Position numbers and translations under genes: made by a program | The notes under the pieces: model-generated | Told to the model about the DNA's origin: nothing | The model's input: the letters and a program-made list of their open reading frames with translations, nothing else | Databases searched by the model: none | Assembly (NCBI GenBank): GCA_017522765.1 | Contig: JAFWYG010000001.1 | Coordinates: 411,291-475,290 of the forward strand | Length of the DNA stretch: 64,000 bases | Direction: 5' to 3' | Source of the DNA: Clostridia bacterium | Lineage (GTDB): Bacteria; Bacillota; Clostridia; TANB77; UBA1234 | Shown here: positions 499 to 47,009 of the stretch, one piece after another | How positions within the stretch are numbered: the stretch's first letter is position 1 | Layout: every line of letters starts with the position of its first letter

Positions 499-1347
499 TT
501 AATTTAAAATAGTGATGTCACGTGGATTGTTTAAGTATTTGTCACTTCTTCCAAAACGACTTAAAGATTCGTGAAATACAAATTTGCCATAAACAGTTTG
601 TGCGGTGCTTTTTTCAAGCGACAAGATGTGACATACGTTCTTTTTTGAATTTATGCCTTCGTCCACAAGCCAATCTTTTTCGTGAATAGAAATGGGACCG
701 TAAATATAGCTTTGACCATCACCATATGGGTGACCTTGATATGTGCTGATTGCATTCAAAACAAATGTGTAAATAGATTCGTTATGATTATGAATACATA
801 CGGTTTCTTCTTCAAAGACATGTGTGTTGGAATTAGAGCAGATTGCCAAGATGCCGAACAAATCTTTTTGTAATTCAGGATTGCGAGCGATGTAGTATGC
901 TGCATGGTAATATTCCATACAATTTAAGATGTAGATTTTTTTACCGTTAATCCAGAATTCATGTTCGCCAAGTTCATACGCGATAAATTCTTCTGGATTA
1001 ACAAATGTGATTTTTCTTGCCATAGGTTCTGCACCAGAGGCATATGCTTTAGGAATTTCGTACATTTTACCATCTTGGAAGACTACTGTGATATTGATAC
1101 CATTTTTATAGTGGCTACCGGCAACGATGATTCTGTTTTTCGAGAGTTCGATGTACTGTTGCTTGAACTTTTCTACATATGTCATTTCGGGGAAGAGTGC
1201 AATGTCAGGTTTGTGTGTGGAAATGAATGAAAAAGCCTTTTCGATTTGCGTTAAAACGTCTTCTGTTTCAATCAGATATTCGTTTTGACTATCGCAGTCA
1301 CACTGAATAGATAATTGAAACATGCATACGGATAAATAATTATTCAT
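499..1347 (-). CDS. carbon-nitrogen hydrolase (nitrilase/amidase superfamily) protein
   Basis: 282-aa ORF with a CN-hydrolase-like Glu (ALFPEM) ... Lys ... Cys (AICSNS) arrangement. It is directly upstream of and co-oriented with coaB. Confidence 0.6.
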   Translation of the reverse strand: MNNYLSVCMFQLSIQCDCDSQNEYLIETEDVLTQIEKAFSFISTHKPDIALFPEMTYVEKFKQQYIELSKNRIIVAGSHYKNGINITVVFQDGKMYEIPKAYASGAEPMARKITFVNPEEFIAYELGEHEFWINGKKIYILNCMEYYHAAYYIARNPELQKDLFGILAICSNSNTHVFEEETVCIHNHNESIYTFVLNAISTYQGHPYGDGQSYIYGPISIHEKDWLVDEGINSKKNVCHILSLEKSTAQTVYGKFVFHESLSRFGRSDKYLNNPRDITILN

Positions 1348-2352: not shown

Positions 2353-2793
2353 GTGATTGTTTTGTTGTATACAAGTTTAACTAAAAAGGCTATGAAAATA
2401 GCTTTTGAAGCACATAAAGAGCAAGTTGATAAAACGGGAATGCCGTACATTTATCATCCTATTCATTTAGCAGAACAAATGAAGGATGAAAATACAATTT
2501 GTGTTGCACTATTACACGATGTGGTAGAAGATACAGATATGACATTCGAAGATTTAGAAAGAGAAGGTTTTACAAAAGAAATAATTGATGCGTTAAAACT
2601 TTTAACTCATGATGAAGCAGTGCCATATTTAGACTATGTTAGAGAAATAAAAAACAATCCAATTGCAACTGCAGTAAAACTTGCAGATTTAAATCATAAC
2701 AGTGATTTGACTAGACTTGATGTGATTGATGAGAAAGCACAAGAACGTGTAGAAAAATATAAAAAATCAATCGCGATATTAACAGAAGGGTGA
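2353..2793 (+). CDS. small HD-domain (RelA/SpoT-type) hydrolase, putative small alarmone hydrolase
   Basis: HD motif region YIYHPIHLAEQM...ALLHDVVEDTD...KLADLNHN. The start codon is uncertain (GTG 2353 or TTG 2362). Confidence 0.65.
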   Translation: MIVLLYTSLTKKAMKIAFEAHKEQVDKTGMPYIYHPIHLAEQMKDENTICVALLHDVVEDTDMTFEDLEREGFTKEIIDALKLLTHDEAVPYLDYVREIKNNPIATAVKLADLNHNSDLTRLDVIDEKAQERVEKYKKSIAILTEG

Positions 2794-2801
2794 TGTAAGA
2801 A

Positions 2802-3332
2802 ATGAAAGTATTAATGGGAACTAAAAATCCTGGAAAAATAGAAGGAGCTAAACTTGCCTTTGAAAGATATTTTGATGATGTAGAAATCGTTGGAATACCT
2901 GTAAGTTCAGATGTAAGTGCACAACCACTTAATGATGAAATTTATAAAGGTGCTAGAAATAGAGTAGACAACTTAAAAAAATATGCTAAAGAGAATAATA
3001 TAGAAGCAGATTTTTATATTGCTAGTGAAGCTGGAATAATGAATTACTTTAAAGAATGGATAGATATAAATTTAGTTGTTGTAGAAAATAAAGATGGTCT
3101 TGAAAGTGTAGCAACAAGTCAAGGGTTCCCTATACCTGAAAAGTATATGGACGAGATAAAAGCAACAGAATTAAGTAATGTTATGGATAGATTATTTGAA
3201 GGGAAAAATTTAGGTCAAGGCAAAGGCGGTATTAGAGTTTTGACTAAGGACGAAGTAACAAGAGTAGATCTTACAAGAAGTGCGTTTGTAATGGCACTTA
3301 CAAAATATATAAATGGAGATGTATGGCAATAA
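2802..3332 (+). CDS. yjjX: inosine/xanthosine triphosphatase (YjjX/NTPase_I-T family)
   Basis: MKVLMGTKNPGKIEGAKLAF...GARNR...ASEAGI pattern typical of the YjjX family. SD GAAGGGTG. Confidence 0.7.
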   Translation: MKVLMGTKNPGKIEGAKLAFERYFDDVEIVGIPVSSDVSAQPLNDEIYKGARNRVDNLKKYAKENNIEADFYIASEAGIMNYFKEWIDINLVVVENKDGLESVATSQGFPIPEKYMDEIKATELSNVMDRLFEGKNLGQGKGGIRVLTKDEVTRVDLTRSAFVMALTKYINGDVWQ

Positions 3333-3357
3333 AACAATAAGATGAAAAGGTGATTTT

Positions 3358-4569
3358 ATGAGATTACTAACAATTCCAAAAGATAAATATGATGAGTACC
3401 GATTAAATTTAATTTTCGATTGCTACAAGTGGGATCCTCAATTTCAAGATAATAACACTGTAGCTAAACATGTTCTTGTAATTACGAAAGAAGAGCATGA
3501 AGAATTAAAAAAATTAACTGAGGCAATAGATAAAGAAACGATAGATGCGGAAAAATATTTAAATGAAAATCAAAAGTATGCGAAGCCTTTAAACTTACCA
3601 AAAGAAATAACTAAAGAATTAAAGTTGATGAAAAATTATGATGCTGAAAAACATGTTAGATTAATGCGTTATGATTTTCATCCTACTATTGATGGTTGGA
3701 ATATAAGTGAAGTTAATAGTGATGTTCCCGGAGGTTTTGCAGAAGCTTCTTTGATGCCACAAGTTGCTAAATATTTATTTAAAGATGAAGCATTATGGCA
3801 TATAAACTTTGGCGATATTTTAACTGGGGCTATTGCTAAAAAAGTTAGACCGGGTGGAAGAATCATGCTTGTACACTGCACATCATATAGTGATGACAGA
3901 CAAGTTATGGAATACTTAGGCGACAAACTTGAGACAATGGGATTTAAGGTTATATATGGCGCAGCAGAGCATGTATTATTTAAAGAGCAAAAAGCGTATT
4001 GCATTCTTTATGGAAATGAAGGTCCGTTGGATGGGATCTTTAGATTTACTCCTTTGGAGTGGTTAAAAGATATTAAGCCTAAATATTGGGATGGATATTT
4101 TGATACAATAACTCCTTCATGTAATCATCCTGTTGCAATCTTTGCTCAAACAAAAAGATTTCCATTAGTGTGGGATAGATTAGAGTTAGAAGGATTAACT
4201 TTAACAAATTGGAAGAGATTGTTGCCAAAAACAGTTGAAGTAAAAGATGCAAAAGGTCAAAAAGGATTTATATATAAGCCTGCATGTGGAAGAGTTGGGG
4301 AAAAGATTTCTATAAAAGAAGCTTGTGATGAAAAAGAGTATGAAGATATTTTGAGAGAAGTTAAGAAAAAACCAAAAGAATATCTTGCTCAAAAGAAATT
4401 TATTAGTAAGCCTTTAACAAGTGAAGAAGGCGAACAATTTCATGTGTGCTTAGGTTCATATACTGTTGATGGAAAGCACGCTGGGTATTATGCAAGAATA
4501 AGTGATAAACCACGTATAGATTCTAGAGCGGCCGACATTCCAGTATTAATTGAAGGGAGTGAAGAGTAA
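3358..4569 (+). CDS. glutathionylspermidine-synthase-family ATP-grasp ligase (GspS/YgiC-like)
   Basis: RYDFHPTIDGWNISEVNSDVPGG resembles YgiC [22 protein letters not shown]. 403 aa. Its stop TAA overlaps the ATG of the next ORF (TAATG). Confidence 0.65.
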   Translation: MRLLTIPKDKYDEYRLNLIFDCYKWDPQFQDNNTVAKHVLVITKEEHEELKKLTEAIDKETIDAEKYLNENQKYAKPLNLPKEITKELKLMKNYDAEKHVRLMRYDFHPTIDGWNISEVNSDVPGGFAEASLMPQVAKYLFKDEALWHINFGDILTGAIAKKVRPGGRIMLVHCTSYSDDRQVMEYLGDKLETMGFKVIYGAAEHVLFKEQKAYCILYGNEGPLDGIFRFTPLEWLKDIKPKYWDGYFDTITPSCNHPVAIFAQTKRFPLVWDRLELEGLTLTNWKRLLPKTVEVKDAKGQKGFIYKPACGRVGEKISIKEACDEKEYEDILREVKKKPKEYLAQKKFISKPLTSEEGEQFHVCLGSYTVDGKHAGYYARISDKPRIDSRAADIPVLIEGSEE

Positions 4570-5243
4570 TGCTTACGAATAGAGAAGTCTATAAAATATG
4601 GGCACCGGCTGGCGCTAAATGGGTAGATTGGGTACGACCAGTACCATTTGTAGAAATAAAAGATTATTCAAAATCGTATAAGTTTTCAAATCTTTCAATT
4701 CCTAAATTAATATATTTAAGCGAGTTGCCAGAAAATACAGCGATTTTTTTAGATCTACCAGGATATGATGCAATAAAAGAAGGTCTTGCATTAGCTAGAT
4801 TTGGAATGAGACCAATTCCTATATATAATGGAACAAATGAGCAAGTGGGCTCTAGAGCAACTGTAGATAATCATGCTGTAGAATTTGGATTATGGTGGGG
4901 AGCAAAAGAGCTACAAAAAATGCAAATAAAAGAAGATGCGCTACCAGTATTTTTATTAGATTCAAATCGTGTTGATCGATACAAAATGAGTGTTACTGTG
5001 TTCGATAATAGCTGGGATATATATCCGCAAGACGTACCTTCGGCTGAATATTTTTTAAACAACGGAATTAATAAAATTATCTTAAGAACAAAAGATGAAG
5101 CAAATGTTGATTTGAAAAAAATTCTATATAAGTATCAAGAAGCTGGTATAAAAATATATTATACAGATGGCTATATAGAACCTGTTGAAGCAGATGTATT
5201 AAAAATAAAAACATTAAAAAGAGCACCACATAAGGATGAGTAG
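4569..5243 (+). CDS. hypothetical protein (224 aa), translationally coupled between the ATP-grasp ligase and the HSS-like gene
   Basis: Uninterrupted ORF with host-like codon usage. Its start overlaps the upstream stop. No motif was recognised. Confidence 0.55.
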   Translation: MLTNREVYKIWAPAGAKWVDWVRPVPFVEIKDYSKSYKFSNLSIPKLIYLSELPENTAIFLDLPGYDAIKEGLALARFGMRPIPIYNGTNEQVGSRATVDNHAVEFGLWWGAKELQKMQIKEDALPVFLLDSNRVDRYKMSVTVFDNSWDIYPQDVPSAEYFLNNGINKIILRTKDEANVDLKKILYKYQEAGIKIYYTDGYIEPVEADVLKIKTLKRAPHKDE

Positions 5244-5258
5244 TAGAGAGGTAATCAA

Positions 5259-6731
5259 ATGATAAAATTTGAAGGAAACATTGTTCAATTCGGTTTTGGA
5301 GCAGTTGGAAAAAGTTTCTTTGAAAAGCTTCCAAAAGAAATAGATTATAACGAAAATAAATACTATGTTATTACTAGAGATAATTATGAGTTTCAAGCGT
5401 ATGTTAATTTGGGTGGAATAGTTGCTAATTTTATAACAGCCGATGTTAATAAAGAAAACTTTGCAGATATATTTAGCAAATATCTTAGTGAAGGAGATTT
5501 GTTGATAGATTTTGCAGATACAGTTGGCACAAGGGATATATGTAATTGGTGTGCTGAAAATAATATCATGTACCTAAATACAGGAGAAGCTGACTGGCCT
5601 GAAAATTGGTATAGTATTTTTAACGAAAATGAACTGAAAAAAGAGCTTAGAGAAAAGCATAAACAAACAACTAACACAAATAAATATCCTATAGTTTTAC
5701 AACATGGAAATAATCCTGGATTAGTTTCATACTTTGTAAAAGAGGGAATAGAGTATATTGCTAGAACACAATATAAGCATAATAAAGAATTAAAAAACTT
5801 TATAAAAAATAAACAATATAACGAAGCTGCAAGATTACTTGATATAAAACAAATTCACGTAAACGATATTGATTTACAAGAAGTTAAAGGCGAGAATAAC
5901 GATGACACATTGTTTAGTACTTGGTGTACAGATTCATTTTGGTTTGAAATGCTTAGTGAAGCAACAATGAATTTCGGTACACATGAGCAAATAGATTTTG
6001 AAGATGAATGTAATTTGGTGAATAAAGAAAAAGGTTACATTGAGTTTAAAAAATTAGCGGCAGATAGGAGATGTCGTACATATTATCCGAATGGACCTTT
6101 TGAAGGTTTTTTAGTTCCGCATGAAGAAACAATTACAATTGCTCAAAATTTAGAAGTAAAGGAAAATGGTAAGAGTGTATATAGACCATCTACAATGTTT
6201 ATATATCAACCTTGCAACTATGCTGTAAATTACTTTAATAAAGCTAAAGTAAATGAGTATCCAAATCCTGATCCAAATAAACCTCAAGATGTTGAGGACC
6301 CTAATGGTAAAACTATTATACGAGGATATGAATATCCAGCCAAAGCAGAAATTCTTTATCAAGAAAAAATATCTTCAGGAACTGAATATGTAGGAGTGCT
6401 TTTGATTGGCGAAAAATTTAAACCAGTTTGGGTAGGAAATAGGATTGAACAAAAGTTTTTATATAAAAATAAAAAAGATTCTTATTGGCAGACGCCAACA
6501 ATCACACCTGTTGCAATGTCAGCTTTAGCTGGAGTATGCTGGATGTTGAAAAATAAAGATAAGGGAGGGATATATTTCCCAGATGATATACCAGAGCATA
6601 AAGAAATATTAAAACTGGCGGAAAAATATATTTCAAAAACAATATATAAAACATTAAAAAAAGATGATTTGGAAGCTAGTATGAAAATAGATTTTTCAAA
6701 CTTACAAACAAAAGATATATTTGTAAAATAA
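5259..6731 (+). CDS. homospermidine synthase-like NAD-dependent enzyme (saccharopine-dehydrogenase fold)
   Basis: N-terminal Rossmann FGFGAVGKS. The internal VYRPSTMFIYQPCNYAV and GVLLIGEKFKPVWVGN segments resemble the bacterial HSS VYRPT..Y.YHPCNDAV and GVLLYG...W.G blocks. 490 aa. SD GAGAGGTAA. Confidence 0.5.
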   Translation: MIKFEGNIVQFGFGAVGKSFFEKLPKEIDYNENKYYVITRDNYEFQAYVNLGGIVANFITADVNKENFADIFSKYLSEGDLLIDFADTVGTRDICNWCAENNIMYLNTGEADWPENWYSIFNENELKKELREKHKQTTNTNKYPIVLQHGNNPGLVSYFVKEGIEYIARTQYKHNKELKNFIKNKQYNEAARLLDIKQIHVNDIDLQEVKGENNDDTLFSTWCTDSFWFEMLSEATMNFGTHEQIDFEDECNLVNKEKGYIEFKKLAADRRCRTYYPNGPFEGFLVPHEETITIAQNLEVKENGKSVYRPSTMFIYQPCNYAVNYFNKAKVNEYPNPDPNKPQDVEDPNGKTIIRGYEYPAKAEILYQEKISSGTEYVGVLLIGEKFKPVWVGNRIEQKFLYKNKKDSYWQTPTITPVAMSALAGVCWMLKNKDKGGIYFPDDIPEHKEILKLAEKYISKTIYKTLKKDDLEASMKIDFSNLQTKDIFVK

Positions 6732-6740
6732 TAAAAATAA

Positions 6741-6776
6741 AAGAGAAGATTTTTTGAATCTTCTCTTTTATTTTTG
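6741..6776. terminator. bidirectional intrinsic terminator between convergent genes
   Basis: AGAGAAGATT/AATCTTCTCT hairpin flanked by T/A runs. Confidence 0.7.
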
Positions 6777-6802
6777 TGGTTAAGTTTTGTGGAATCACTG
6801 TA

Positions 6803-9145
6803 TTAGTGACCGCCACCGCCACCGCCGCCTCCACGGCCACCGCCATAACCACCACTATATCCGCCTGAGCGTGCAGTGTGTGATGCTGAGCGAGTTGCTG
6901 ATCTAAATGATCTACTTGAAGAACGGAAACTTGAAGATCTGTAATATCCATTGCTTAATAATGGACTTTCAGAGATTTCAGGGCATCTTATTCTTAATGC
7001 TTTAACAACTTTTTCTGAAATACCAAATGCAGTAGCATAAATTAAGTATTTTTCCCATATAGGTAATTCGATAAGTGTACGTTCATTCATAAGTGTTTCA
7101 CTATTTAAGAAGTTGTATAATCCTCTCCATTTTTGGTATTCGTCTTCACCTTTTTGAGTAAGTAAAATATATTTTGCAGCTATTTTTTTGATGTGACGAC
7201 CACACAAAATAGAAACAATTATAAATATAAAGTATGATCCGTATGCTGTACCAACTCTTGTAGCTAAAGAACCCATTAAGAAGAAAAATGTTAAAATAGG
7301 GAACACATATGTATATGTCGCAGCCTTTGCATTAAGTTCATTTCTTGGTTCTTTATATTTTGCTTTTTGGAAGTATCCTTCATTAACACCAATTTCAACA
7401 ACAGTTTTATCAAATGCTTTTACAAATGAGTCTGTATGTTCATAGTCTCTTAGTACATTTGCTTGGAATACGCTCAAAGGTATTTCTCCAAAAGTAGAAT
7501 AACGAACAATTAAGTTGAAGTATAATTCTTCTGTAGGAGATAGAGCTTCAAACATTTCACCTGGAATAGGTTCTTCTGAAACGGGTTCTTCAGGAATAGT
7601 AGTAGCAGTTAAATCTGTAAAACTTGAATCTTCTGAAGATAAATCGGTGAATGGTTTTTCATCAACTGGAACGAATCCAGAAAAACTTGAAGAACTTGCT
7701 CCGAAAATTTCCATTTCATTAATAGCTGTATCAAATGAACGTTGAAGTGACGCTCTTGCTAATGCCATAGGATCATTTGGATCAATGTTTTCAAATGGAT
7801 TAGTTGGATTATCTGAATAAGTTGGTGGTGTTCTGTGAATAGTTGGATTGTATTTTATTACAATTTTTATATTCTTTTTAACCCAGTCAAGCATTGGATT
7901 TATACGTTCTAATTCTATATATTTTTTACGAACAAGGCTTAGCATTGCAGCTGAATATCCATCGCGTGGTTCAGCTGAATTTTCATCGCTAACATCTTTT
8001 TTATCTTTACAGAAAACTAAGTGAGTAGCGAAGTTTGGATCTAAGTCACTTGGTATATCTCTAAAGTATTGTATTTCTTGTTCTGGTGTATAGAATTGAT
8101 GCTTATCTCGAACTTTATTTTCAACATTCTTTGTTCTTTTTGCAATAAAGATAGTTAATGCAATCAAAGCAATAAAAGTAAATGTTTTTTGTACTTTACC
8201 ATCTTTATATTCTTGAACATATTCTTGGTATTCTTCATTTATTTCATCAAGAGCAATATCATCATAATAACGATTTCGTGGAGCGAAATCTGTGAATTTG
8301 TGTTTGTCTACACCATATGAAACTAATTCAAACTCAATAAATTCAGTGAAGTTATCAAACTTTAAATCAGAACCATCAAGTTCAATTAAGAAAGTGTGAT
8401 ATCCTGGATTTAAAGTATCAGACTCTGAATATTCAAATTCGTTTTTCTTAGTACCATAGGTATATACATTATAGAAACCTTCTGCAGGCATATCGTCATC
8501 CTCAATCAAGATTTGAGCTTTGAAAGAATCTAGATGGTTAATTGTTTCTTCAGAATACATGCACAAATATAAATCTGAACAGTCTGCATATCTAAATGCT
8601 GCATTCGTCATTTCGTATTGAAGCTCAAAAACTAATTCTTCACGATATGTACCTGGAATGTAGAAGAATACACATTCATATTGTCTACGATATTCGTTGT
8701 ATGGTCCGGGACTGTAAAACCATTTGTATGGTCCAGTACTAGCATATTGTCCTGTATAATCCCAATCTTCCCAATAAAGCTTTGAACTTTCTTTATAATT
8801 TTTAGTGGTTCCATCATCAAAAATTTGTTTAACGTAATTTACTTTGTAATCTGTTTTCAAACCATCTGTTGTAGACTCTGGCAAATCTCTCCATAGTTCC
8901 CAGAAAAGATTATCACGAGAAGCAGCGTGGATGTCATAAGTTAAACGTTCTGTTACAACAACTTTTGCTTCTGCTCCAGGTTCATCTACAAGAACAGCTG
9001 TATAATCAACATCTGTTATACGAGCGTAGTCATTAATTCCTGTACTTTCCTCACTATCAAATTCACTTACTATAGAAGAAAACATTCCCACAAACATAAT
9101 GAATATTATGAAGAAAATGTACATTTTTAAAAGGGTATTGTTCAT
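6803..9145 (-). CDS. DUF2207-family membrane protein with Gly-rich C-terminal tail
   Basis: 780 aa with an N-terminal signal/TM, a large extracytoplasmic region and a C-terminal TM cluster. The tail SSSFRSSSRSF...GGYSGGYGGGRGGGGGGGGH is typical of DUF2207 proteins. Confidence 0.55.
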   Translation of the reverse strand: MNNTLLKMYIFFIIFIMFVGMFSSIVSEFDSEESTGINDYARITDVDYTAVLVDEPGAEAKVVVTERLTYDIHAASRDNLFWELWRDLPESTTDGLKTDYKVNYVKQIFDDGTTKNYKESSKLYWEDWDYTGQYASTGPYKWFYSPGPYNEYRRQYECVFFYIPGTYREELVFELQYEMTNAAFRYADCSDLYLCMYSEETINHLDSFKAQILIEDDDMPAEGFYNVYTYGTKKNEFEYSESDTLNPGYHTFLIELDGSDLKFDNFTEFIEFELVSYGVDKHKFTDFAPRNRYYDDIALDEINEEYQEYVQEYKDGKVQKTFTFIALIALTIFIAKRTKNVENKVRDKHQFYTPEQEIQYFRDIPSDLDPNFATHLVFCKDKKDVSDENSAEPRDGYSAAMLSLVRKKYIELERINPMLDWVKKNIKIVIKYNPTIHRTPPTYSDNPTNPFENIDPNDPMALARASLQRSFDTAINEMEIFGASSSSFSGFVPVDEKPFTDLSSEDSSFTDLTATTIPEEPVSEEPIPGEMFEALSPTEELYFNLIVRYSTFGEIPLSVFQANVLRDYEHTDSFVKAFDKTVVEIGVNEGYFQKAKYKEPRNELNAKAATYTYVFPILTFFFLMGSLATRVGTAYGSYFIFIIVSILCGRHIKKIAAKYILLTQKGEDEYQKWRGLYNFLNSETLMNERTLIELPIWEKYLIYATAFGISEKVVKALRIRCPEISESPLLSNGYYRSSSFRSSSRSFRSATRSASHTARSGGYSGGYGGGRGGGGGGGGH

Positions 9146-30475: not shown

Positions 30476-30488
30476 GGAGTTGATAAAT

Positions 30489-31730
30489 TTGAAAAAATTT
30501 ATATTCACATTAATTGCTTTACTATCAATGTCAACATATGTGTTTGCAGGAGTTACTGTTGAATTAAATGGCGAAACACTTAATTTTACAGATGCAAATG
30601 GATATACTGTTAATCCGCAAATTATAAATAATAGAACGATGGTACCTCTTAGAAAAATCTTTGAAACTTTAGGTGCTGAAATTGAATGGTTTGGTGATAC
30701 TGAAACTGTTATTGCTACTAAGGGAGATACTAAAGTTAAGTTGCAAATAAACAATCCGATTGCAGAATTGACTAAAGACGGAGTTACTCAAAAAATAACT
30801 TTAGATTCAAAACCAGTGATTGTTAATGATAGAACTTTAGTACCATTAAGATTTATTTCGGAAAGTTTAGAAAAACAAGTTGCGTGGGATCAAGATACTC
30901 AAACTGCAATAATAATTGACTATGATTATTTTATAAATGTATTTAAAACAAAGGCTCCTGTTTTTTATAATTCGTTAGTAAAAAAATCTAGTGCTCAACC
31001 AGCTACTTTGAAAATATCGAAAGCATATTATGATTTGAAGAATGCCGCATACAACAATGTATCTAACGTTACTGCGCAAATTTATAACAATTCGGAGAAT
31101 AGTAAAAAAGTAATTGTTAGTATGGATGGAAATTCAGAGTTGTTTAATGAAATAAGAAATGAAGGCTGGTCAAATTTTGATATTACAATAAATACAAACG
31201 AGAAGGGAGTATCTTGTACTTCTACATCTGCAACGATAAATCAGATGATCGGTACAGGATATAAGTCAAATGATGAACTTAATCTTATAGGTTCTGTAAA
31301 GGATTCGTGGGGAACATTTTTTAAAAACATTTTTGGTAAAGAAGAAAAAGATGTAAATTTAGCGACGTTTTATAATATAAATTCTGATTATATTAAATTT
31401 ATAAATTTATTTAAATTTTCAAATACTGCAAATTCATCAACGATAACAGCAAGCGGAATTAATTACCTGAATGCAACTTTGAAAAACTTTGATTATACCA
31501 AGTTCGATAATGTCTTGCTTGAAAACGAAATAGTACAAGTATATAATATTTTAAACAAGTTAATATTTAACTATGATGTGACTATGGATGAGCTTCTTTA
31601 TAATGCTTCTAATATAAATGTTTCGATTACAACAACAGTGGAAGGAAATTTATATAGAACTAATTTCATAGTAGAACTACTTAATGAATATAACGAAAAA
31701 GTAGTATACACGGTTAATGTAACAAGATAA
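30489..31730 (+). CDS. secreted copper-amine-oxidase N-terminal (stalk-like) domain protein
   Basis: Two NG.TL.F...P.I.N.RTMVPLR.I.E.LGA.V.W repeats. Signal peptide MKKFIFTLIALLSMSTYVFA. The TTG start at 30489 follows SD AAGGAG; the tracked start 30480 abuts the SD. Confidence 0.65.
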   Translation: MKKFIFTLIALLSMSTYVFAGVTVELNGETLNFTDANGYTVNPQIINNRTMVPLRKIFETLGAEIEWFGDTETVIATKGDTKVKLQINNPIAELTKDGVTQKITLDSKPVIVNDRTLVPLRFISESLEKQVAWDQDTQTAIIIDYDYFINVFKTKAPVFYNSLVKKSSAQPATLKISKAYYDLKNAAYNNVSNVTAQIYNNSENSKKVIVSMDGNSELFNEIRNEGWSNFDITINTNEKGVSCTSTSATINQMIGTGYKSNDELNLIGSVKDSWGTFFKNIFGKEEKDVNLATFYNINSDYIKFINLFKFSNTANSSTITASGINYLNATLKNFDYTKFDNVLLENEIVQVYNILNKLIFNYDVTMDELLYNASNINVSITTTVEGNLYRTNFIVELLNEYNEKVVYTVNVTR

Positions 31731-31745
31731 TGAGGAGGATGAAAG

Positions 31746-33098
31746 ATGAAAAGATTTATTTCAATGTTGCTAGCACTTACTATGGTATTTTCAATTGCTA
31801 GTATTTCTTTTGCTACTGATATGGTAACAAGTGCTCCAATACTAATAAGCCCAAAACCAGTAGCAATAGCTGAAAGAGGAATTTCTGTAATTCTTAACGG
31901 AGAATATGTTGATTTTACAGATGAATTAGGAAATGTCGTTGAACCACAACTTATTAACGATAGAACAATGGTTCCAATGAGAAAAATATTTGAAGTTTTT
32001 GGCGCAGATGTACAATGGGACGGTGCAACAGAAACTGTTACAGCCGTAACGGAAGAGAAAACATTAAAATTACAAATTAATAATCCTGTTGCAAAAGTAA
32101 TTTCTTTACCTTCTGGTGAAGAAACTGAAATTGTACTTGATTCTGTTCCTGTAGTAGTAGAAGGAAGAACTTTGGTTCCAGTAAGATTTATTGCTGAATC
32201 ATTAGAATTAAAAGTTGGTTGGGATGGAGATACAAGTACAGTTGTTATCATTGATCCTCTAAAAATATTTGAAATAGTAAAAGAAAAAGCACCAACATTC
32301 TATGAATACTTAACAAATGAATATATTGTTCCAGAAGCAATGACAGCAGATGCTGATATGATTTTAAATATCAAATACACAAATGGAGATAATAAAGCAT
32401 TAAATACAAATGCTAAATTTGTTATCGATGCAATGGTAAAAGGTGCTGCTAATCTATATGAAATGAATATGGATTGCAAGGTAACTGGTAAAGGTTTAAT
32501 GTATGAAGAAATTAAATCTGCAGATATGACAAATATATCTTTAGATATGGTTCTAGATACAAATGATATGATTGGATATATTAGATCATCTTTATTAGAA
32601 GAAGACATCGGAAACAAATGGTTAATGGTTGCTGAAGCTGCAGAAGAATTTGAAGATGTAATTGCAAACCCACAAGAATATACAATGGATGATGTTGTAG
32701 ATATGTTCTTTGATTCAATAACTATGACAGAAGATACATATGATGCATTAGTTGCTGGGGTTGAACTATTTTGTAGATTCGCAAGTGATGAATTCTTCAC
32801 AGTATCTGGAAGAACAACAAAGACATATACATATGAAATTACATTAGATGAATTAAATTCTTTATTACAAGAATTAGGAATGAATGCTGATTTAAAAGAT
32901 TATGCTAAATCAGGTAAAATTAAATTTTCATCAAAATACGCAAAGGGAATAAACACAGCTAGTGCATTTGAAATAGCTGCAACAATTTATAATGGTAAAG
33001 AAGAAATTGCACTTTCTTTCACAGGTGATTCTACATTAAATACAACAAAAGCTGTAAATATTAAATTGCCTGCTAAAAATGACGTTGTTGAATATTAA
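31746..33098 (+). CDS. secreted copper-amine-oxidase N-terminal domain protein (tandem paralog)
   Basis: Same repeat architecture (LINDRTMVPMRKIFEVFGADVQWD ... VVEGRTLVPVRFIAESLELKVGWD). SD GAGGAGGATG. Confidence 0.65.
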   Translation: MKRFISMLLALTMVFSIASISFATDMVTSAPILISPKPVAIAERGISVILNGEYVDFTDELGNVVEPQLINDRTMVPMRKIFEVFGADVQWDGATETVTAVTEEKTLKLQINNPVAKVISLPSGEETEIVLDSVPVVVEGRTLVPVRFIAESLELKVGWDGDTSTVVIIDPLKIFEIVKEKAPTFYEYLTNEYIVPEAMTADADMILNIKYTNGDNKALNTNAKFVIDAMVKGAANLYEMNMDCKVTGKGLMYEEIKSADMTNISLDMVLDTNDMIGYIRSSLLEEDIGNKWLMVAEAAEEFEDVIANPQEYTMDDVVDMFFDSITMTEDTYDALVAGVELFCRFASDEFFTVSGRTTKTYTYEITLDELNSLLQELGMNADLKDYAKSGKIKFSSKYAKGINTASAFEIAATIYNGKEEIALSFTGDSTLNTTKAVNIKLPAKNDVVEY

Positions 33099-35121: not shown

Positions 35122-38100
35122 ATGAAGGTGCTATTTGCAGTTGGATCTGAGCAAGTATCAAAGAATATAGCAGATAAGTATTACGAGAAATATGGGGAAG
35201 TACTGGAATATAAAAATGTGTTTTTCTTTAAGGCATTAATTGATGAAATAAAGAGAGACAAAACCTATGACAGAATAGTTGTTAGTGAAGAAATCGAAGA
35301 GTATGCTAGAACAGCTGATTTAGAACAAGTAGATAGAAGACTATTTAACTATATCGACCAAATAACTGATGAAACGCAAGATACAGATATTATTATCATT
35401 TGCGGAAATAGAAGAAATAAAGGCGATGCTTTTATTAATAAATTATTTAGCATAGGTATATATAACTTATTAATTGGTGATGACAGAAACGTAACACCAC
35501 TTTGCGATATCTTGAAAAAACCAAAAACAAAAAGAGAGGCAAAGCAATATTTGGGAATAGATACATCACTTATTTCAGACAGTTCTATGACGAGAGACGA
35601 TGAAGTTGATGAATACCAAATAAGAAGTATTTTAAGTTATTATGACGGAATTAAAAATCAACCTGAAAGATATGTTGAAACATTTGATAGAATTGCTGAA
35701 CAATACAGTAGATTGCAATTAATAATTATATTCAATTATTTGCCACCTGCTGTAAAAAAAGCAATTGCAGAGACTGATAGATATAGACATTTAGCGGCGC
35801 CTCCAGGGGAAGCTGCTAGAGGACCACAAGGTGCTGGTCCAGCGCAACCAAAGCAACCACAACAACCTGCGGCTCAAGCACCACAAAAAACTACTATTAC
35901 AAAACCGCAAAAAGAGAAGAAAGGATTATTTGGCAATTTTAAGAAAAATAAAAACAATCCAAATAAACCAACTTCAGAACAAGCAATGGAATCATTAGCA
36001 CAAACGGGAAGCATAGATTTAAGTACAAATACACCGCCTGCAGCACCTTCAAGCCAAGCAGCAGAGCAAGCTAAACTAGCTCAAGAAAAAGCTGAAGCAG
36101 ATAAAAGAGCTGCAGAAGAAGCTGCTAAATTAAGAGAAGAAGCAGCAAAACAACAACAACAAGAAGAATTAGCGAGAAAAGCTAGAGAAGAGCAAATGCA
36201 AAGAGAGCAACAAGCGAAAGCTCAAGCACAACAAAATCAACAAGCTCAAGTTGATTCTATACAACAAGCTAAAGAAGCTGAACAAAGACGTTTACAAGAA
36301 TTAGCTAAGCAACAACAAATGCAAAGAGAGCAAGCACAAGCTAAACAAGCGGAAGCGGATGAACAAAAACGTTTGCAAGAATTAGCTAAGCAACAACAAT
36401 TACAAAGAGATCAGGCGCAAGCTAAACAAGCGGAAGCGGACGAGCAAAAACGCTTACAAGAATTAGCTAAGCAACAACAATTACAAAGAGATCAAGCGCA
36501 AGCTAAGCAAGCGGAAGCGGACGAGCAAAAACGTTTACAAGAACTAGCTAAGCAACAACAAATGCAAAGAGATCAAGCACAAGCTAAACAAGCGGAAGCA
36601 GATGAACAAAAACGTTTGCAAGAATTAGCTAAGCAACAACAAATGCAAAGAGATCAAGCACAAGCTAAACAAGCGGAAGCGGACGAACAAAAACGTTTGC
36701 AAGAATTAGCTAAGCAACAACAGCTACAAAGAGAACAACCAACACCAAGTGGCATAAATATAAAACCAAATCCAAATGCTCCAAGAGCAGTACCGAATAA
36801 AGAGTTTGATATAGATGTGGAACCGATTGCAAAGACTCCGACAGAACCACCAAAACCTGTAGAGCCCGTTAAACCGGTTGAACCACCAAAACCAGCGGAA
36901 CCAGTTCGTCCAGTAGAGCCTCCAAAGCCTGCTGAGCCAGTAAAACCAATTGAACCGCAGGGGACTGTGGTTACTCCAGTTGTACCGGTTACACCAATAT
37001 CTAATGCAACTCCAAGTGAGCCTCAACAACCTAAATATGCACCACCATCACAACATGTTCCTACACCAGAACAATTGGCTGGAGCGAAAGTTGTTTCACC
37101 AGCGTTAAGTGCTGAAGAAGCAAGAATGAAAGAACAACAAGAAAATCTTGCTAAAGAACAACAAAAAATTAGAGAAGCTCAAGAAAAATTGGAAGAAGAA
37201 AAGAGAAAATTAAAAGAAGAACAAGAAAAATTGATGACTGCTCAAAATCAGTTAAGAGCAGATGGCATGTTGCCAAATATGCCACAATATACAACTACAG
37301 TAGGGGCTAATGGAAGACCACAAGTTCCAATGGGATCTTTTAAGAAAATGGTTGTATTTGTTGGTCCAAATAAAGCGGGAACCACTTTCGTAGTAAATGC
37401 AGTAGCACATGCAATGGCGAACGAAAAAATAATGACATCAGTTTTGGACATGACTAGAGATAAAGGTATGTGGTATATATACAGCCAACAATATAGCACA
37501 GCTATGCAAAAGAAAATGGCGAACTACATGCAAAGAATATCAGATGGAGAAGAGTTATTTATCGAAACTTCAAATCCATTTTTGAAAATTTATTCTGCGC
37601 CAGGTTCTATAAGTGATGTTAGAAGAGGATATAAACATAAAAACATTATGGATGTAGTAAGAAACAATGCAAATGTTGTTTTAGTTGATGCTGACTTTAC
37701 TACTCCGATAGATTATTTTGATCATGCGGATGAGGTATATGTAGTTCAAGACTTAGATATATTGAAAATGCCAGATACAACTTTATTCTTAAGAGAGTTG
37801 AAAAATAGAGGCATGAACATGAAAAAAATAAGAGTTATCTTAAACAAATATGTTAAGACGGCCACACTAAATTCTAAGAAACTTATTCAAGTAATGAGCA
37901 CATATTCAGACCCAGGAATGACATATATGGAATCAGAACTTTTACCATCAAAAGTAGATTTCTCTACAATACCATATAATATAAATAACTATACAAAATA
38001 TACAGAAGCACTATGTACAGGTCTTAACAACTATAAGGGTTACTCAAATGATTTCTTAGCGGTAATAAGTGAAATAGTGTCAAAGATATATCAAAATGGT

Positions 38101-38160
38101 GCACAATCAAAAATGCCACAAATGGGACAACCAAAAGGAATGAAGAAGTTTTTTGGATAA
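35122..38160 (+). CDS. large modular protein: receiver-like N-domain, coiled-coil tandem repeats, Pro-rich linker, degenerate MinD/ParA-like C-domain (TadZ/CpaE-like ends)
   Basis: 1012 aa. The C-terminus VVFVGPNKAGTTFVVN...VLDMTRD...VVLVDADFTTP has a MinD/ParA pattern but lacks the second Walker A lysine. The middle holds (KRLQELAKQQQ[LM]QR[DE]QAQAKQAEADEQ)n and (PKPxEPV)n. Confidence 0.6.
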   Translation: MKVLFAVGSEQVSKNIADKYYEKYGEVLEYKNVFFFKALIDEIKRDKTYDRIVVSEEIEEYARTADLEQVDRRLFNYIDQITDETQDTDIIIICGNRRNKGDAFINKLFSIGIYNLLIGDDRNVTPLCDILKKPKTKREAKQYLGIDTSLISDSSMTRDDEVDEYQIRSILSYYDGIKNQPERYVETFDRIAEQYSRLQLIIIFNYLPPAVKKAIAETDRYRHLAAPPGEAARGPQGAGPAQPKQPQQPAAQAPQKTTITKPQKEKKGLFGNFKKNKNNPNKPTSEQAMESLAQTGSIDLSTNTPPAAPSSQAAEQAKLAQEKAEADKRAAEEAAKLREEAAKQQQQEELARKAREEQMQREQQAKAQAQQNQQAQVDSIQQAKEAEQRRLQELAKQQQMQREQAQAKQAEADEQKRLQELAKQQQLQRDQAQAKQAEADEQKRLQELAKQQQLQRDQAQAKQAEADEQKRLQELAKQQQMQRDQAQAKQAEADEQKRLQELAKQQQMQRDQAQAKQAEADEQKRLQELAKQQQLQREQPTPSGINIKPNPNAPRAVPNKEFDIDVEPIAKTPTEPPKPVEPVKPVEPPKPAEPVRPVEPPKPAEPVKPIEPQGTVVTPVVPVTPISNATPSEPQQPKYAPPSQHVPTPEQLAGAKVVSPALSAEEARMKEQQENLAKEQQKIREAQEKLEEEKRKLKEEQEKLMTAQNQLRADGMLPNMPQYTTTVGANGRPQVPMGSFKKMVVFVGPNKAGTTFVVNAVAHAMANEKIMTSVLDMTRDKGMWYIYSQQYSTAMQKKMANYMQRISDGEELFIETSNPFLKIYSAPGSISDVRRGYKHKNIMDVVRNNANVVLVDADFTTPIDYFDHADEVYVVQDLDILKMPDTTLFLRELKNRGMNMKKIRVILNKYVKTATLNSKKLIQVMSTYSDPGMTYMESELLPSKVDFSTIPYNINNYTKYTEALCTGLNNYKGYSNDFLAVISEIVSKIYQNGAQSKMPQMGQPKGMKKFFG
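36283..36745 (+). repeat. in-frame 81-bp tandem repeat, about 5.5 copies
   Basis: The unit gaacaaaaacgtttgcaagaattagctaagcaacaacaa[at]t[gt]caaagaga[gt]caagc[ag]caagctaaacaagcggaagcgga[ct] is repeated with only synonymous or conservative changes. Confidence 0.8.
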
Positions 38161-45065: not shown

Positions 45066-46844
45066 TTACGCTGCGATGAAGGATTTCAGATTGTCCGTGC
45101 GGAGGCTCTTAATTCTTTCGGGCGTACGATTTTTTGCACCGCAAGGAATATTTCCTTCGATGATGTAACAGTAAAGGGCGATAAGCAACCCGTTGCTTTG
45201 CATCTGTTTTTCAGAAGCACGAGAGCGTTTGAGACTGAGCAGCTTTTCTTGTACCTTTGAGATATCGATGTCCTTAAGGTTAAAGTATGCACTGCCAAAA
45301 TCAGAGTCAAATCCGATTGCTTTTTTGAAAGCGGTCTCATCGTCGTTTTCACTGTATTCAGCGATAGCATCGCCGAAGTAAGGAATCCAGAATCCCTGAA
45401 TCATTTCAGCTGTTTGCTGAGAGTTCTCAATTTTGATACCGTTATTAGTAGCAAACTTGAGAATGGTTTCTTCAGGAGAAAGTTTGTGTTCGATGCCGAA
45501 ATATTCTTTTTCGAATGCAGCATCAATGCCCATGACGTTTGCAAGATTTGCAGCATCCTCATCGGACTTTTCAGAGAACCAGTAAACAGCAATCATTGAT
45601 CTAATACTTTGTCTGAGAGCATCGTCGTCATAACTGTAAAACTCGGCCAGAGTATCGATTGTTTCAAAGCACTGCTTGAGGGGCATATTTGCATTGATGT
45701 AACCGCGCTGAATTGCGAAGAGTGTCAATGCATAGTATGTCTGCCATTCAAATTCATGCTCGGGAATCTGCTCGCCGGTTTCGATGTTATATGCCATTCC
45801 TTTGAAAACAAGATTCTCATCGGCCATATATTTGAAGAGTTCGAAATAGCAGTCACGTTCTCTTTCGCCGGAGATTTGGAATGTTCCCAGGATCTCGTCC
45901 GTGAGTTCGTAGTGCTTTACATTTCTGCTTGCGAGAAGGCCGTTTTCAAAAGTTCTGACAAAATGAGCTCTTTCATCGAATTCGGAAAGCGGATGAAGCA
46001 ACATCATAAGCATTGCAATCATAAAGTTTTGGAATTTGCTTTCCGTGAATGCTTCTTTAACTGCAAATGTCGTATATGACGTGTAGTAGTGGTCTGCATG
46101 AATTTGTGTCTTTATGGCACGGTAGTCACGGAACTTGTAGTTGCTCTTGTATGTGATAGGATATTCAACATGATTGAGCTCAGAAAGTTCAATGACTTTT
46201 TTGCGAAGCTTAGGTTCAAGCTGTTCCAGTGCAAATTGGATTGCGCCATAACGCACATGTACAGTCTTTCCCATAAGGGTATAGAGCAAAAATGTTTCCT
46301 CGGGGAAGAGATAATGCTTATGCAGATTGTCCCATTTTGTGTAGTTGATGGTGAGCTGACCATTGTTTAACCAAAGCTCTTCTACGAAAAATTCTCCAGC
46401 AGAGAAAAATGTGAAGAAGGACCGGATGTATTTTGCTTTAGTCAGGTCGTCCATATCCTCGGGAGCATCACACAGATGAGTTGCCATCATAGAGATGAGG
46501 TGTTTGAAACCGTGCAAATAATACTGTGCGTTTTCAAGTGTGCGAAGACATGCGAGATCATTTTCGAGAATCTTGGGATTCAGAGGGCGAGCAAATTTTA
46601 CACCATAACCGCAGTGCCGCAGAATGGCTTGAAGTCTTTTTTCGCCGATAACATTTGTGAATACGGGCAGGGCTTCATTGTGAAGCAGGGGCAGATCGAT
46701 ACAGTAGATGTGCGAAAAACCAGGCATTTGAGTGCTGGGTAAAATGAATTCCTCGTAGTCCGGTACGAGAAGCTTCCAAAATTTGATGAGTGCCTTGGTA
46801 TCGCTGTTGCCTAGTGTGGGATCCTTGATGATTGTAAGTTCCAT
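45066..46844 (-). CDS. large hypothetical cytoplasmic protein (592 aa), GC-rich island
   Basis: Long uninterrupted ORF. SD AAGGAAAGGA precedes ATG 46844. No recognised motif. About 45-50% GC versus AT-rich flanks. Confidence 0.5.
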   Translation of the reverse strand: MELTIIKDPTLGNSDTKALIKFWKLLVPDYEEFILPSTQMPGFSHIYCIDLPLLHNEALPVFTNVIGEKRLQAILRHCGYGVKFARPLNPKILENDLACLRTLENAQYYLHGFKHLISMMATHLCDAPEDMDDLTKAKYIRSFFTFFSAGEFFVEELWLNNGQLTINYTKWDNLHKHYLFPEETFLLYTLMGKTVHVRYGAIQFALEQLEPKLRKKVIELSELNHVEYPITYKSNYKFRDYRAIKTQIHADHYYTSYTTFAVKEAFTESKFQNFMIAMLMMLLHPLSEFDERAHFVRTFENGLLASRNVKHYELTDEILGTFQISGERERDCYFELFKYMADENLVFKGMAYNIETGEQIPEHEFEWQTYYALTLFAIQRGYINANMPLKQCFETIDTLAEFYSYDDDALRQSIRSMIAVYWFSEKSDEDAANLANVMGIDAAFEKEYFGIEHKLSPEETILKFATNNGIKIENSQQTAEMIQGFWIPYFGDAIAEYSENDDETAFKKAIGFDSDFGSAYFNLKDIDISKVQEKLLSLKRSRASEKQMQSNGLLIALYCYIIEGNIPCGAKNRTPERIKSLRTDNLKSFIAA

Positions 46845-47009
46845 AGCGTTCCTTTCCTTAAAATAGTATATGTGGTCTAAGCCTCGTAATTTTATCATAT
46901 TATGTCTACTTTTTCAATAAAATTGGTAAAAAATGTGAGCTTTTAGCCGTTTTTATTGTAAAAAACGGGGATATAATATACAATATTTTCGAGAAAAGGA
47001 GGACGGACT

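Follow-up and report, generated by a model that had tools for sequence, protein, structure and literature searches.

In a 64,000-nucleotide stretch from a Clostridia bacterium (contig JAFWYG010000001.1; the whole analysed stretch is hereafter termed the window), three tightly linked genes, designated g1, g2 and g3, encode an ATP-grasp ligase, a partner protein of an unnamed family and an enzyme resembling homospermidine synthase (HSS) (Table 1). We interpret this locus, with a probability of about 0.5, as a membrane-associated carboxylate–polyamine ligase module, the likeliest function of which, by analogy with characterized relatives, would be ATP-dependent attachment of a polyamine to the C-terminus of a peptide or protein. 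Comparison of related loci defined the conserved unit as g1 and g2 together with a convergently oriented DUF2207 membrane protein gene and often a LemA gene, g3 being optional. A preliminary description of this DNA had reported the three linked genes and predicted a homospermidine conjugate from them; its observation is confirmed and its interpretation is partly supported, while the conserved DUF2207 gene and the frequent LemA gene did not figure in its account of the module.

The ligase and its obligate partner

The prediction that g1 is a YgiC/YjfC-type carboxylate–amine ligase of the glutathionylspermidine (GSP)-synthetase family is well supported by profile comparisons and agrees with the ATP-grasp assignment in the preliminary description. 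g1 matches Pfam GSP_synth (PF03738) with E 2.4e-19 (70.2 bits against a cut-off of 29.3) over profile positions 22–368 of 371, with no other convincing profile match in Pfam or NCBIfam, and the PHROG ‘glutathionylspermidine synthase’ with E 4e-12. Searched against the Protein Data Bank (PDB), a profile built from g1-family sequences alone, without YgiC and YjfC, recovered YgiC (7UK8, E 1.4e-7, near full length), GspS (E 3.6e-6) and YjfC (E 7.8e-3). Ten residues (R104, D106, E118, N120, D122, E129, K307, R312, G314 and R380), which take in R-x-D and E-x-N-x-D motifs, are invariant in the g1 family, YgiC, YjfC and the GSP-synthetase-like (gss-like) protein of Achromobacter phage Motura; by analogy with GspS structures, we take these residues to be Mg/ATP-binding. 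A bifunctional GspSA was rejected as an identity for g1, the N-terminal CHAP amidase domain being missing (no such domain was found with Pfam, and the NCBIfam model PRK10507 scored 36 bits against a cut-off of 882, over its C-terminal part only).

YgiC and YjfC carry the RefSeq product name ‘peptide--spermidine ligase’, an activity that is credited to Pederick et al. 2023 in PMC11762307 and PMC12568646. A 2025 review describes the physiological substrate of YgiC as still unknown, and Sui et al. 2012, as quoted in citing papers, found YgiC to be without GSP synthetase activity. Ligases of this type are widespread across bacteria, and a YjfC-like GSP-synthetase homolog occurs in at least 133 phage records, mostly of T4-like Acinetobacter and Aeromonas phages and also of Delftia phage PhiW-14.

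The middle protein, g2, had been described as 224 residues with no recognisable motif, and it indeed gave no match in Pfam, NCBIfam, PHROGs, PADLOC or PDB sequences. Its AlphaFold2 (AF2) model (predicted local distance difference test score, pLDDT, 82) contains a five-stranded alpha/beta domain. A word search found 1,657 homologs of it, and an exhaustive profile search 1,046 clusters at 50% identity; the family has many invariant Asp and Trp residues and yielded no homologs in viral contigs or phage records. Membership of g2 in DUF1190 (YgiB/YjfM) or DUF2491 (YjfK) was rejected at hhalign probabilities of 0.1% and 0.3%, and a defence system was rejected with no PADLOC match for any module protein.

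Conservation of gene order was evaluated in a close set of 84 non-redundant loci anchored on g2 (48–91% identity), most of them recovered from the gut metagenomes of termites and ruminants and from metagenome-assembled genomes (MAGs) of Clostridia or Lachnospiraceae. g1 lies directly 5′ of g2 in 74 of the 79 informative close loci, a linkage well in excess of chance, and two further loci carry an insertion between the genes. In nine distant g2-family loci (Defluviitaleaceae, Oscillospiraceae, Haploplasma, Kiritimatiellota and others), the gene immediately 5′ of g2 is without exception GSP_synth (9/9), usually with stop and start overlapping, and at least four loci (L097, L098, P0242 and P0250) encode g1 and g2 as a single fused protein, with differing linkers. 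Thus, the status of g2 as an obligate partner of g1, whether adjoining, translationally coupled or fused, is well supported.

The genes that follow this pair vary. Directly downstream of g2 lies g3 in 35/63 loci, the convergent DUF2207 gene in 25 and another gene in 3; after g3, DUF2207 comes next in 21/22 informative loci, so that DUF2207 is the next gene after g2 or g3 in 46/49 informative loci overall. On the g2 tree, the presence of g3 requires at least 11 gains or losses. Because g1–g2 adjacency is invariant whereas g3 has been repeatedly gained and lost, we describe the module as a g1–g2 core with an optional g3; of the co-occurrence expected for the trio at the outset, the pairing of the first two genes was borne out and constant membership of the third was not. 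Unbiased clustering of all neighbouring open reading frames (ORFs) identified LemA, encoded in 22 loci and absent from the window, as the sole further recurrent gene. The upstream LysR, HD and yjjX genes, a 282-residue protein gene and a downstream radical-SAM gene recur in near-identical loci only, and the upstream genes, which the preliminary description had suggested as part of the same locus, were accordingly rejected as members of the module.

Distant loci have other membrane partners. DUF2207 was found within 7 kb in 0/9 of them; a DUF350-like membrane protein gene lies directly upstream in five or six of the nine, DUF350 being the family of E. coli YjfL, whose gene precedes yjfM and yjfC, and g2 is fused to four transmembrane (TM) helices in three of the nine. 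Membrane association of the module is well supported. At the position of g3, an Oscillospiraceae locus (L094:8299-10065) encodes a 588-residue protein with two tandem spermine/spermidine-synthase-like modules, the gene order being GSP_synth, a g2-TM-tail fusion and the double spermine-synthase-like gene. That the polyamine-building enzymes of the module are interchangeable is likewise well supported.

Additional genes were seen around the pair in individual loci. In L004 (L004:3158-7817), g1 and g2 are interrupted by a 1,242-residue S8 subtilase with three CBM_2 domains and a 305-residue protein without a Pfam match; in L005 (L005:1797-2714), the 305-residue protein alone is inserted. Proteins of 419–500 residues without a Pfam match, and without detectable similarity to each other, are encoded directly upstream of two of the g1–g2 fusions (L097:2528-4030 and L098:2760-4019), and in one MAG (L002:4760-6774) a 560-residue transglutaminase-core protein and a 96-residue ORF directly precede g1.

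The homospermidine-synthase-like enzyme

Sequence and fold comparisons both placed g3 nearest to HSS. All 14 phmmer matches of g3 in the PDB were HSS (best 2PH5, E 7.5e-38), aligned over almost the full length rather than in the two internal blocks to which the likeness had been limited in the preliminary description, and no saccharopine or carboxy(nor)spermidine dehydrogenase was matched among PDB sequences at E up to 1. The only Pfam match is Sacchrp_dh_NADP, at the N-terminus. With the AF2 model of g3, Foldseek returned HSS at ranks 1–21 (TM 0.67–0.75), followed by carboxyspermidine dehydrogenases (~0.52) and saccharopine/lysine dehydrogenases (~0.46), with dehydrogenase matches about ten orders of magnitude weaker in E-value than HSS. 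A saccharopine or carboxy(nor)spermidine dehydrogenase, the alternative grouping that had been set for checking, was therefore rejected, HSS being nearest by both measures.

Functional residues of B. viridis HSS (BvHSS) were taken from PMC4725965 and PMC8489232, and the numbering was validated on 17/17 reference residues. g3 N152, W222, E230, H288 and E290 correspond to BvHSS N162, W229, E237, H296 and E298 and are invariant in 40/40 family members and in phage HSS; g3 also keeps Y316 and T414 (BvHSS Y325 and T396). At five further positions, D203, D225, F229, F314 and E376 replace BvHSS E210, E232, S236, Y323 and D361 in 40/40 family members, and the ionic-slide residue D94 of BvHSS is Thr in g3. 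The putrescine pocket formed by E210, D361, Y323 and E232 is consequently not that of HSS, with charge kept and geometry changed, whereas the biochemically validated phiRSL1 HSS retains E, D, Y and E at these positions. E210 is the inner amino site of BvHSS, where a negative charge is required according to the literature; the Asp of g3 supplies that charge. Two of the changes, E232D and D361E, are those that protein engineers made to push HSS toward spermidine synthesis.

These comparisons describe the g3 family as a distinct HSS-like subfamily with a remodelled substrate pocket, and g3 itself is predicted to be an HSS-type enzyme with altered amine specificity. Its entrance (D94T, S236F and Y323F), partly de-charged and more aromatic, may be compatible with an acylated acceptor. 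Consequently, the conjugate predicted in the preliminary description holds in part: ATP-dependent joining of a polyamine to a peptide fits the activity reported for YgiC/YjfC, but homospermidine as the putative g3 product is unproven because five pocket substitutions are fixed in 40/40 members.

Glycine-rich tails and the proposed reaction

Outside the lineage of the window, g2-family proteins of at least 235 residues are extended at the C-terminus by a sequence of the type “…GLRRN(S/A)AGGFGG(V/I)IP…G” (these proteins are referred to as tail-bearing). The last residue is Gly in 76/91 mid-length and 17/19 long representatives, and in 98/100 proteins of a second set, compared to a background of 7.9%. 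The same element, R/K-GG[FY]G followed by 7–25 residues and then GG, occurs on ligase-neighbour proteins with unrelated globular parts, including E. coli YjfM and YgiB and several phage proteins (Table 1). Scanning of 388 six-frame ORFs (the window and the tail loci) with this pattern gave 16 fits, 15 of which are ligase neighbours, one per locus, and the tail was present in 15/15 non-Lachnospiraceae loci of the scan. In g2-TM fusions, which have four helices (eight in the duplicated form), the tail is predicted to be cytoplasmic by the positive-inside rule.

The DUF2207 protein of the window (PF20990, E 3e-26; PF09972, E 2e-6) is predicted from hydropathy and the positive-inside rule to have four TM segments, with its N-domain outside the cell and its C-terminal region in the cytoplasm; the tail of that region (…GGYGGGRGGGGGGGGH) has the form GGYG…GGGGH with His as the final residue. 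Among related DUF2207 tails, 37/45 end in GGGGH and 35/45 have GG[FY]G within the last 40 residues. DUF2207 is found beside tail-less g2 in 46/49 loci and beside tail-bearing g2 in 0/9 (Fisher p = 2e-8), and its tail may stand in, in trans, for the RGG[FY]G…G tail that g2 has in other lineages. As a module-specific marker, the DUF2207 tail was downgraded, because Fusobacterium DUF2207 proteins without g1–g2 have similar tails: plasmid pSB029A of Fusobacterium animalis (L099:2439-7382) carries a tandem pair of DUF2207 paralogs, their tails Gly-rich (…GGGGSRGGGGGF), and behind them genes for a GNAT acetyltransferase and LemA, with no g1–g2. In L002, L003, L013, L017, L020 and L024, the DUF2207 3′ end loses GGGGH and reads into Arg/Trp-rich sequence; these six exceptions look like frameshifts in the GGN-repeat (poly-Gly) tract and could be assembly errors or slippage-prone sites.

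In the reaction proposed for the module, g1 together with g2 would spend ATP on converting a C-terminal carboxylate into an acyl phosphate, which a primary amine of a polyamine would then amidate; this chemistry has been reported for YgiC/YjfC acting on peptides and for GspS acting on the glycine carboxylate of glutathione. The acyl donor would possibly be a protein tail and not a free small molecule. Where g3 is present, NAD+ would oxidise a diamine to an imine and the aminoalkyl group would move to an amine, so that g3 would either supply a homospermidine-type triamine or lengthen an amine already attached. Taking the tail carboxylate as the ligase substrate appears to be the most economical reading of the tail data. 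Among acyl substrates, a glycine-rich protein tail is, from the sequence patterns, the likeliest candidate, possible for the g2 family in general and unlikely for the window, where g2 would have lost its tail and the neighbouring DUF2207 would offer a similar cytoplasmic tail in trans. We put forward the tail peptides GGYGGGRGGGGGGGGH, RNSAGGFGGVIPDAYSGGRTFYGGG and VSRGGYGRSSSARGHWGG as candidate ligase substrates.

Joined together, these elements lead to a broader and tentative proposal, which we consider short of probable: YgiC/YjfC-type ligases would polyaminate the terminal Gly of the ‘RGG[FY]G…GG’ tails of their neighbours, and in the window the tail would have moved to DUF2207 while the HSS-like enzyme would build or extend the polyamine. 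In Proteobacteria the tail carriers would be DUF1190 proteins; in T4-like and jumbo phages this part would fall to small lipoprotein-like proteins, and in Firmicutes, Mollicutes and Kiritimatiellota to the g2 family. The HSS-like step would then parallel, in bacteria and with a non-homologous enzyme, the formation of deoxyhypusine on a protein. Deoxyhypusine synthase performs an NAD-dependent aminobutyl transfer onto a protein-bound amine. It is not homologous to HSS (PMC13625781).

A number of observations weigh against a polyamine ligase acting on protein tails. All function assignments for the locus proteins are predictions; g1 is 16–17% identical to YgiC/YjfC, Foldseek found no significant structural neighbour of the g2 model and its fold thus gave no functional clue, and the g3 model (pLDDT 73) is poor in the substrate domain (pLDDT 41–59, residues 210–290). 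As g3 is missing in about 40% of loci, a dedicated polyamine is not required. The g2 subfamily of the window is without the tail (0/120 close homologs end in Gly), and the tail rule has an exception in Bacillus phage WH1, where the protein downstream of the gss-like gene is without it. The DUF2207 tail ends in His and not Gly, its gene is convergent to the operon and hence not co-transcribed, and Gly-rich tails are general in DUF2207 proteins without a g1–g2 neighbour. Finally, YgiB, YjfM and Motura gp274 have lipoprotein-like N-termini, which would make their tails periplasmic unless they are modified before export.

Part of this evidence would suit a soluble product instead. Free sym-homospermidine made by g3 would then be joined by g1 to a small free acid, an amino acid or a short peptide, giving a metabolite of the N-acyl- or glutathionyl-homospermidine type; g2 would serve as an accessory or specificity factor, and the proximity of DUF2207 would have no mechanistic meaning. 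The g1 homologs GspS and trypanothione synthetase yield small-molecule conjugates, Li et al. (PMC9992855) proposed glutathionylhomospermidine for hss–gss clusters, and both the tail-less g2 of the window and the generic occurrence of Gly-rich tails in DUF2207 agree with such a product. We nevertheless consider it somewhat unlikely: g3 is optional (35/63 loci) and departs from validated HSS at five pocket positions, YgiC was without GSP synthetase activity (Sui et al. 2012, as quoted by citing papers), and a soluble conjugate explains neither the conservation of DUF2207 beside tail-less g2 only (p = 2e-8) nor the terminal-Gly tail on ligase neighbours from unrelated families. The tail and the g2 domain could also be localisation or regulatory elements, with g2 plus its tail, or DUF2207, tethering or regulating the ligase at the inner membrane face while the target is a lipid head group, a cell-wall precursor or another peptide. 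Such a role draws on the universal presence of membrane partners (DUF350, fused TM segments, DUF2207/LemA), on the link of these operons to membrane-stress systems made by Ravi et al. (PMC11237479), and on the invariant Asp and Trp residues of g2, which would suit a cationic ligand; the nearly absolute final Gly (98/100) is what one would sooner expect of a C-terminus that takes part in chemistry than of an anchor, and the characterised relatives act on peptide C-termini, which makes this role decidedly unlikely.

We regard it as very improbable that the locus has no link to polyamines, g1 adding amino acids as RimK or cyanophycin synthetase does and g3 being a dehydrogenase whose substrate is lysine or a compound like saccharopine. 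In its favour are the chemical versatility of ATP-grasp enzymes and the single Pfam match of g3, to the generic Sacchrp_dh_NADP; against this, g3 is placed with HSS, far ahead of the carboxyspermidine, saccharopine and lysine dehydrogenases, it retains the HSS-specific Trp and Glu-His-Glu triad, a spermine-synthase-like gene takes its position elsewhere (L094), and the nearest relatives of g1 all use polyamines. Gene order inherited without functional coupling might be suspected from the close loci, most of which belong to one clade (Lachnospiraceae and related Clostridia), and from the opposite strand of DUF2207. This explanation is extremely improbable, and strongly disfavoured for g1–g2, as the block is kept while flanking genes vary, g1–g2 adjacency spans phyla and the two genes have repeatedly been fused.

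Relation to known systems and layout of the locus

The closest points of comparison are the E. coli operons tolC-ygiB-ygiC and yjfI-J-K-L-M-C, the ligases of which share their Pfam family and invariant residues with the module. A membrane protein adjoins the ligase in the E. coli loci and in the distant g2 loci alike, with DUF350/YjfL in both. In the YgiC/YjfC loci, a neighbour ends in RGG[FY]G…GG, whereas g2 of the window is without the tail; the module has the g2 family as partner, without homology to the E. coli DUF1190/DUF2491 partners, the membrane partner is DUF2207/LemA instead of DUF350/PspA, and an HSS-like gene is attached, unlike in the E. coli operons. PspA-associated operons (Ravi et al. 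2024, PMC11237479) combine a GSP-synthetase-like ATP-grasp enzyme with AdoMetDC, polyamine oxidase, spermine-synthase-like enzymes and membrane proteins including DUF350. The module is without the PspA, CesT/Tir, DUF1190 and DUF2491 of that account (PMC11237479), from which, conversely, the g2 family, DUF2207/LemA and an HSS-like enzyme are absent.

The preliminary description knew of no such conjugate described for Firmicutes. Linkage of an hss gene to a gss-like gene was already published for Motura and beta-Proteobacteria (hss–gss clusters; Li et al. 2023, PMC9992855), and what is new is this lineage and its partner proteins. In Motura, an HSS homolog, a small protein and a GSP-synthetase homolog are clustered as here, in a different gene order; the small protein ends in RGGFG…GG and is unrelated to g2, the HSS keeps the canonical E210, Y323 and D361 that g3 does not, the gss-like protein is 19% identical to g1, and the cluster is without DUF2207. 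Bacterial HSS (B. viridis, P. aeruginosa and L. pneumophila; EC 2.5.1.44) and g3 have full-length homology, the fold and the GxGxxG NAD motif in common and share the catalytic Asn, the cation-pi Trp and the Glu-His-Glu triad, at 22–27% identity; the g3 gene is a ligase-module accessory and does not lie beside putrescine biosynthesis genes.

GspS and trypanothione synthetase have an ATP-grasp synthetase domain homologous to g1, and GspS-family chemistry joins a C-terminal Gly carboxylate to a polyamine amine. ATP-dependent extension of a protein C-terminal carboxylate is also performed by RimK and tubulin tyrosine ligase, which belong to other ATP-grasp subfamilies than g1. Operons of orphan GSP-synthetase-like ligases that also encode polyamine enzymes and membrane proteins are known already, as are hss–gss clusters; the g2 family as obligate partner, the DUF2207/LemA association and the HSS-like subfamily with a remodelled pocket are new here. 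The cross-family terminal-Gly tail as a candidate YgiC/YjfC substrate also appears to be new, judged against literature other than Pederick et al. 2023. Its occurrence on unrelated ligase neighbours provides a concrete candidate substrate for YgiC/YjfC that is testable in E. coli, and polyamination of protein tails, if true, would give bacteria a new kind of post-translational modification, one linked with membrane proteins of abundant gut Clostridia.

Table 1 Coordinates of the module in the window and of tail-bearing ligase neighbours in other genomes
Feature	Position	Strand	Description
g1	3358-4569	+	403 aa; predicted YgiC/YjfC-type ATP-grasp carboxylate-amine ligase, glutathionylspermidine-synthetase family
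g2	4569-5243	+	224 aa; partner of g1, unnamed alpha/beta-domain family, tail-less Lachnospiraceae-type subfamily
g3	5259-6731	+	490 aa; divergent homospermidine-synthase-like NAD enzyme, module accessory
Bidirectional intrinsic terminator hairpin	6731-6777		19-20 bp stem, T-runs on both strands
DUF2207 membrane protein gene	6803-9145	-	780 aa; Pfam DUF2207 + DUF2207_C
Codons for Gly-rich C-terminal tail of DUF2207	6806-6868	-	…SGGYSGGYGGGRGGGGGGGGH
E. coli YjfM	L100:7388-8026		C-terminus …VSRGGYGRSSSARGHWGG
E. coli YgiB	L101:2745-3416		C-terminus …VTRGGFGESVAKQ…SRSMGG
Motura gp274 (between hss and gss)	L090:6300-6683		C-terminus …IVRGGFGSTGSSFSAGG
phiRSL1 ORF051	L107:1038-1442		C-terminus …ARGGFGATAAGHASAGG
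Aeromonas phage 44RR2.8t ORF096c	L108:390-998		C-terminus …KGGFGKSGSFGSSGG
Acinetobacter phage ZZ1 p0010	L109:601-1122		C-terminus …SRGGFGGAVSSGG

The three genes were found as ORFs where they had been placed before. g1 is preceded by the Shine-Dalgarno sequence AAAGGTGA (3346-3353), and the expected overlap of its stop with the g2 start is present as TAATG at 4567-4571. g3 has its own Shine-Dalgarno sequence (AGAGAGG), as had been noted; its start lies 15 nt after the g2 stop and not the 13 nt given before. The hairpin downstream is shared as a terminator by the g1–g3 operon and the convergent DUF2207 gene. Because the 25-nt gap between yjjX and g1 holds no terminator, the upstream genes may read through into the trio in this genome.

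The window is chromosomal, corresponding to part of a 626-kb metagenomic scaffold, and besides the module it is otherwise without polyamine genes. Spo0A is encoded in the window; the host is therefore a spore-forming member of Clostridia. Upstream of g1, at 2353-3332, a stand-alone HD_4 protein (143–146 aa) resembles the N-terminus of the RelA/SpoT hydrolase; its gene sits 8 nt before the inosine/xanthosine triphosphatase gene (NTPase_I-T, yjjX), and a LysR regulator precedes both. The 282-residue protein encoded at 499-1347 (-), earlier taken for a CN-hydrolase, gave no Pfam or NCBIfam match at E up to 0.01, no PHROG and no relevant PDB match at E up to 10, so that this assignment is unsupported; visual inspection suggests at most a possible Glu/Lys/Cys pattern. 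In the parent scaffold (L006), a DFP-family gene adjoins it. Elsewhere in the window, three ORFs gave no Pfam match at E up to 1e-5 (35122-38160, 1,012 aa; 45066-46898, 610 aa; 47967-49460, 497 aa), and at 30480-33098 two tandem paralogs (416 and 450 aa), each with a copper-amine-oxidase N-terminal-like domain, are followed by a D-Ala-D-Ala carboxypeptidase gene.

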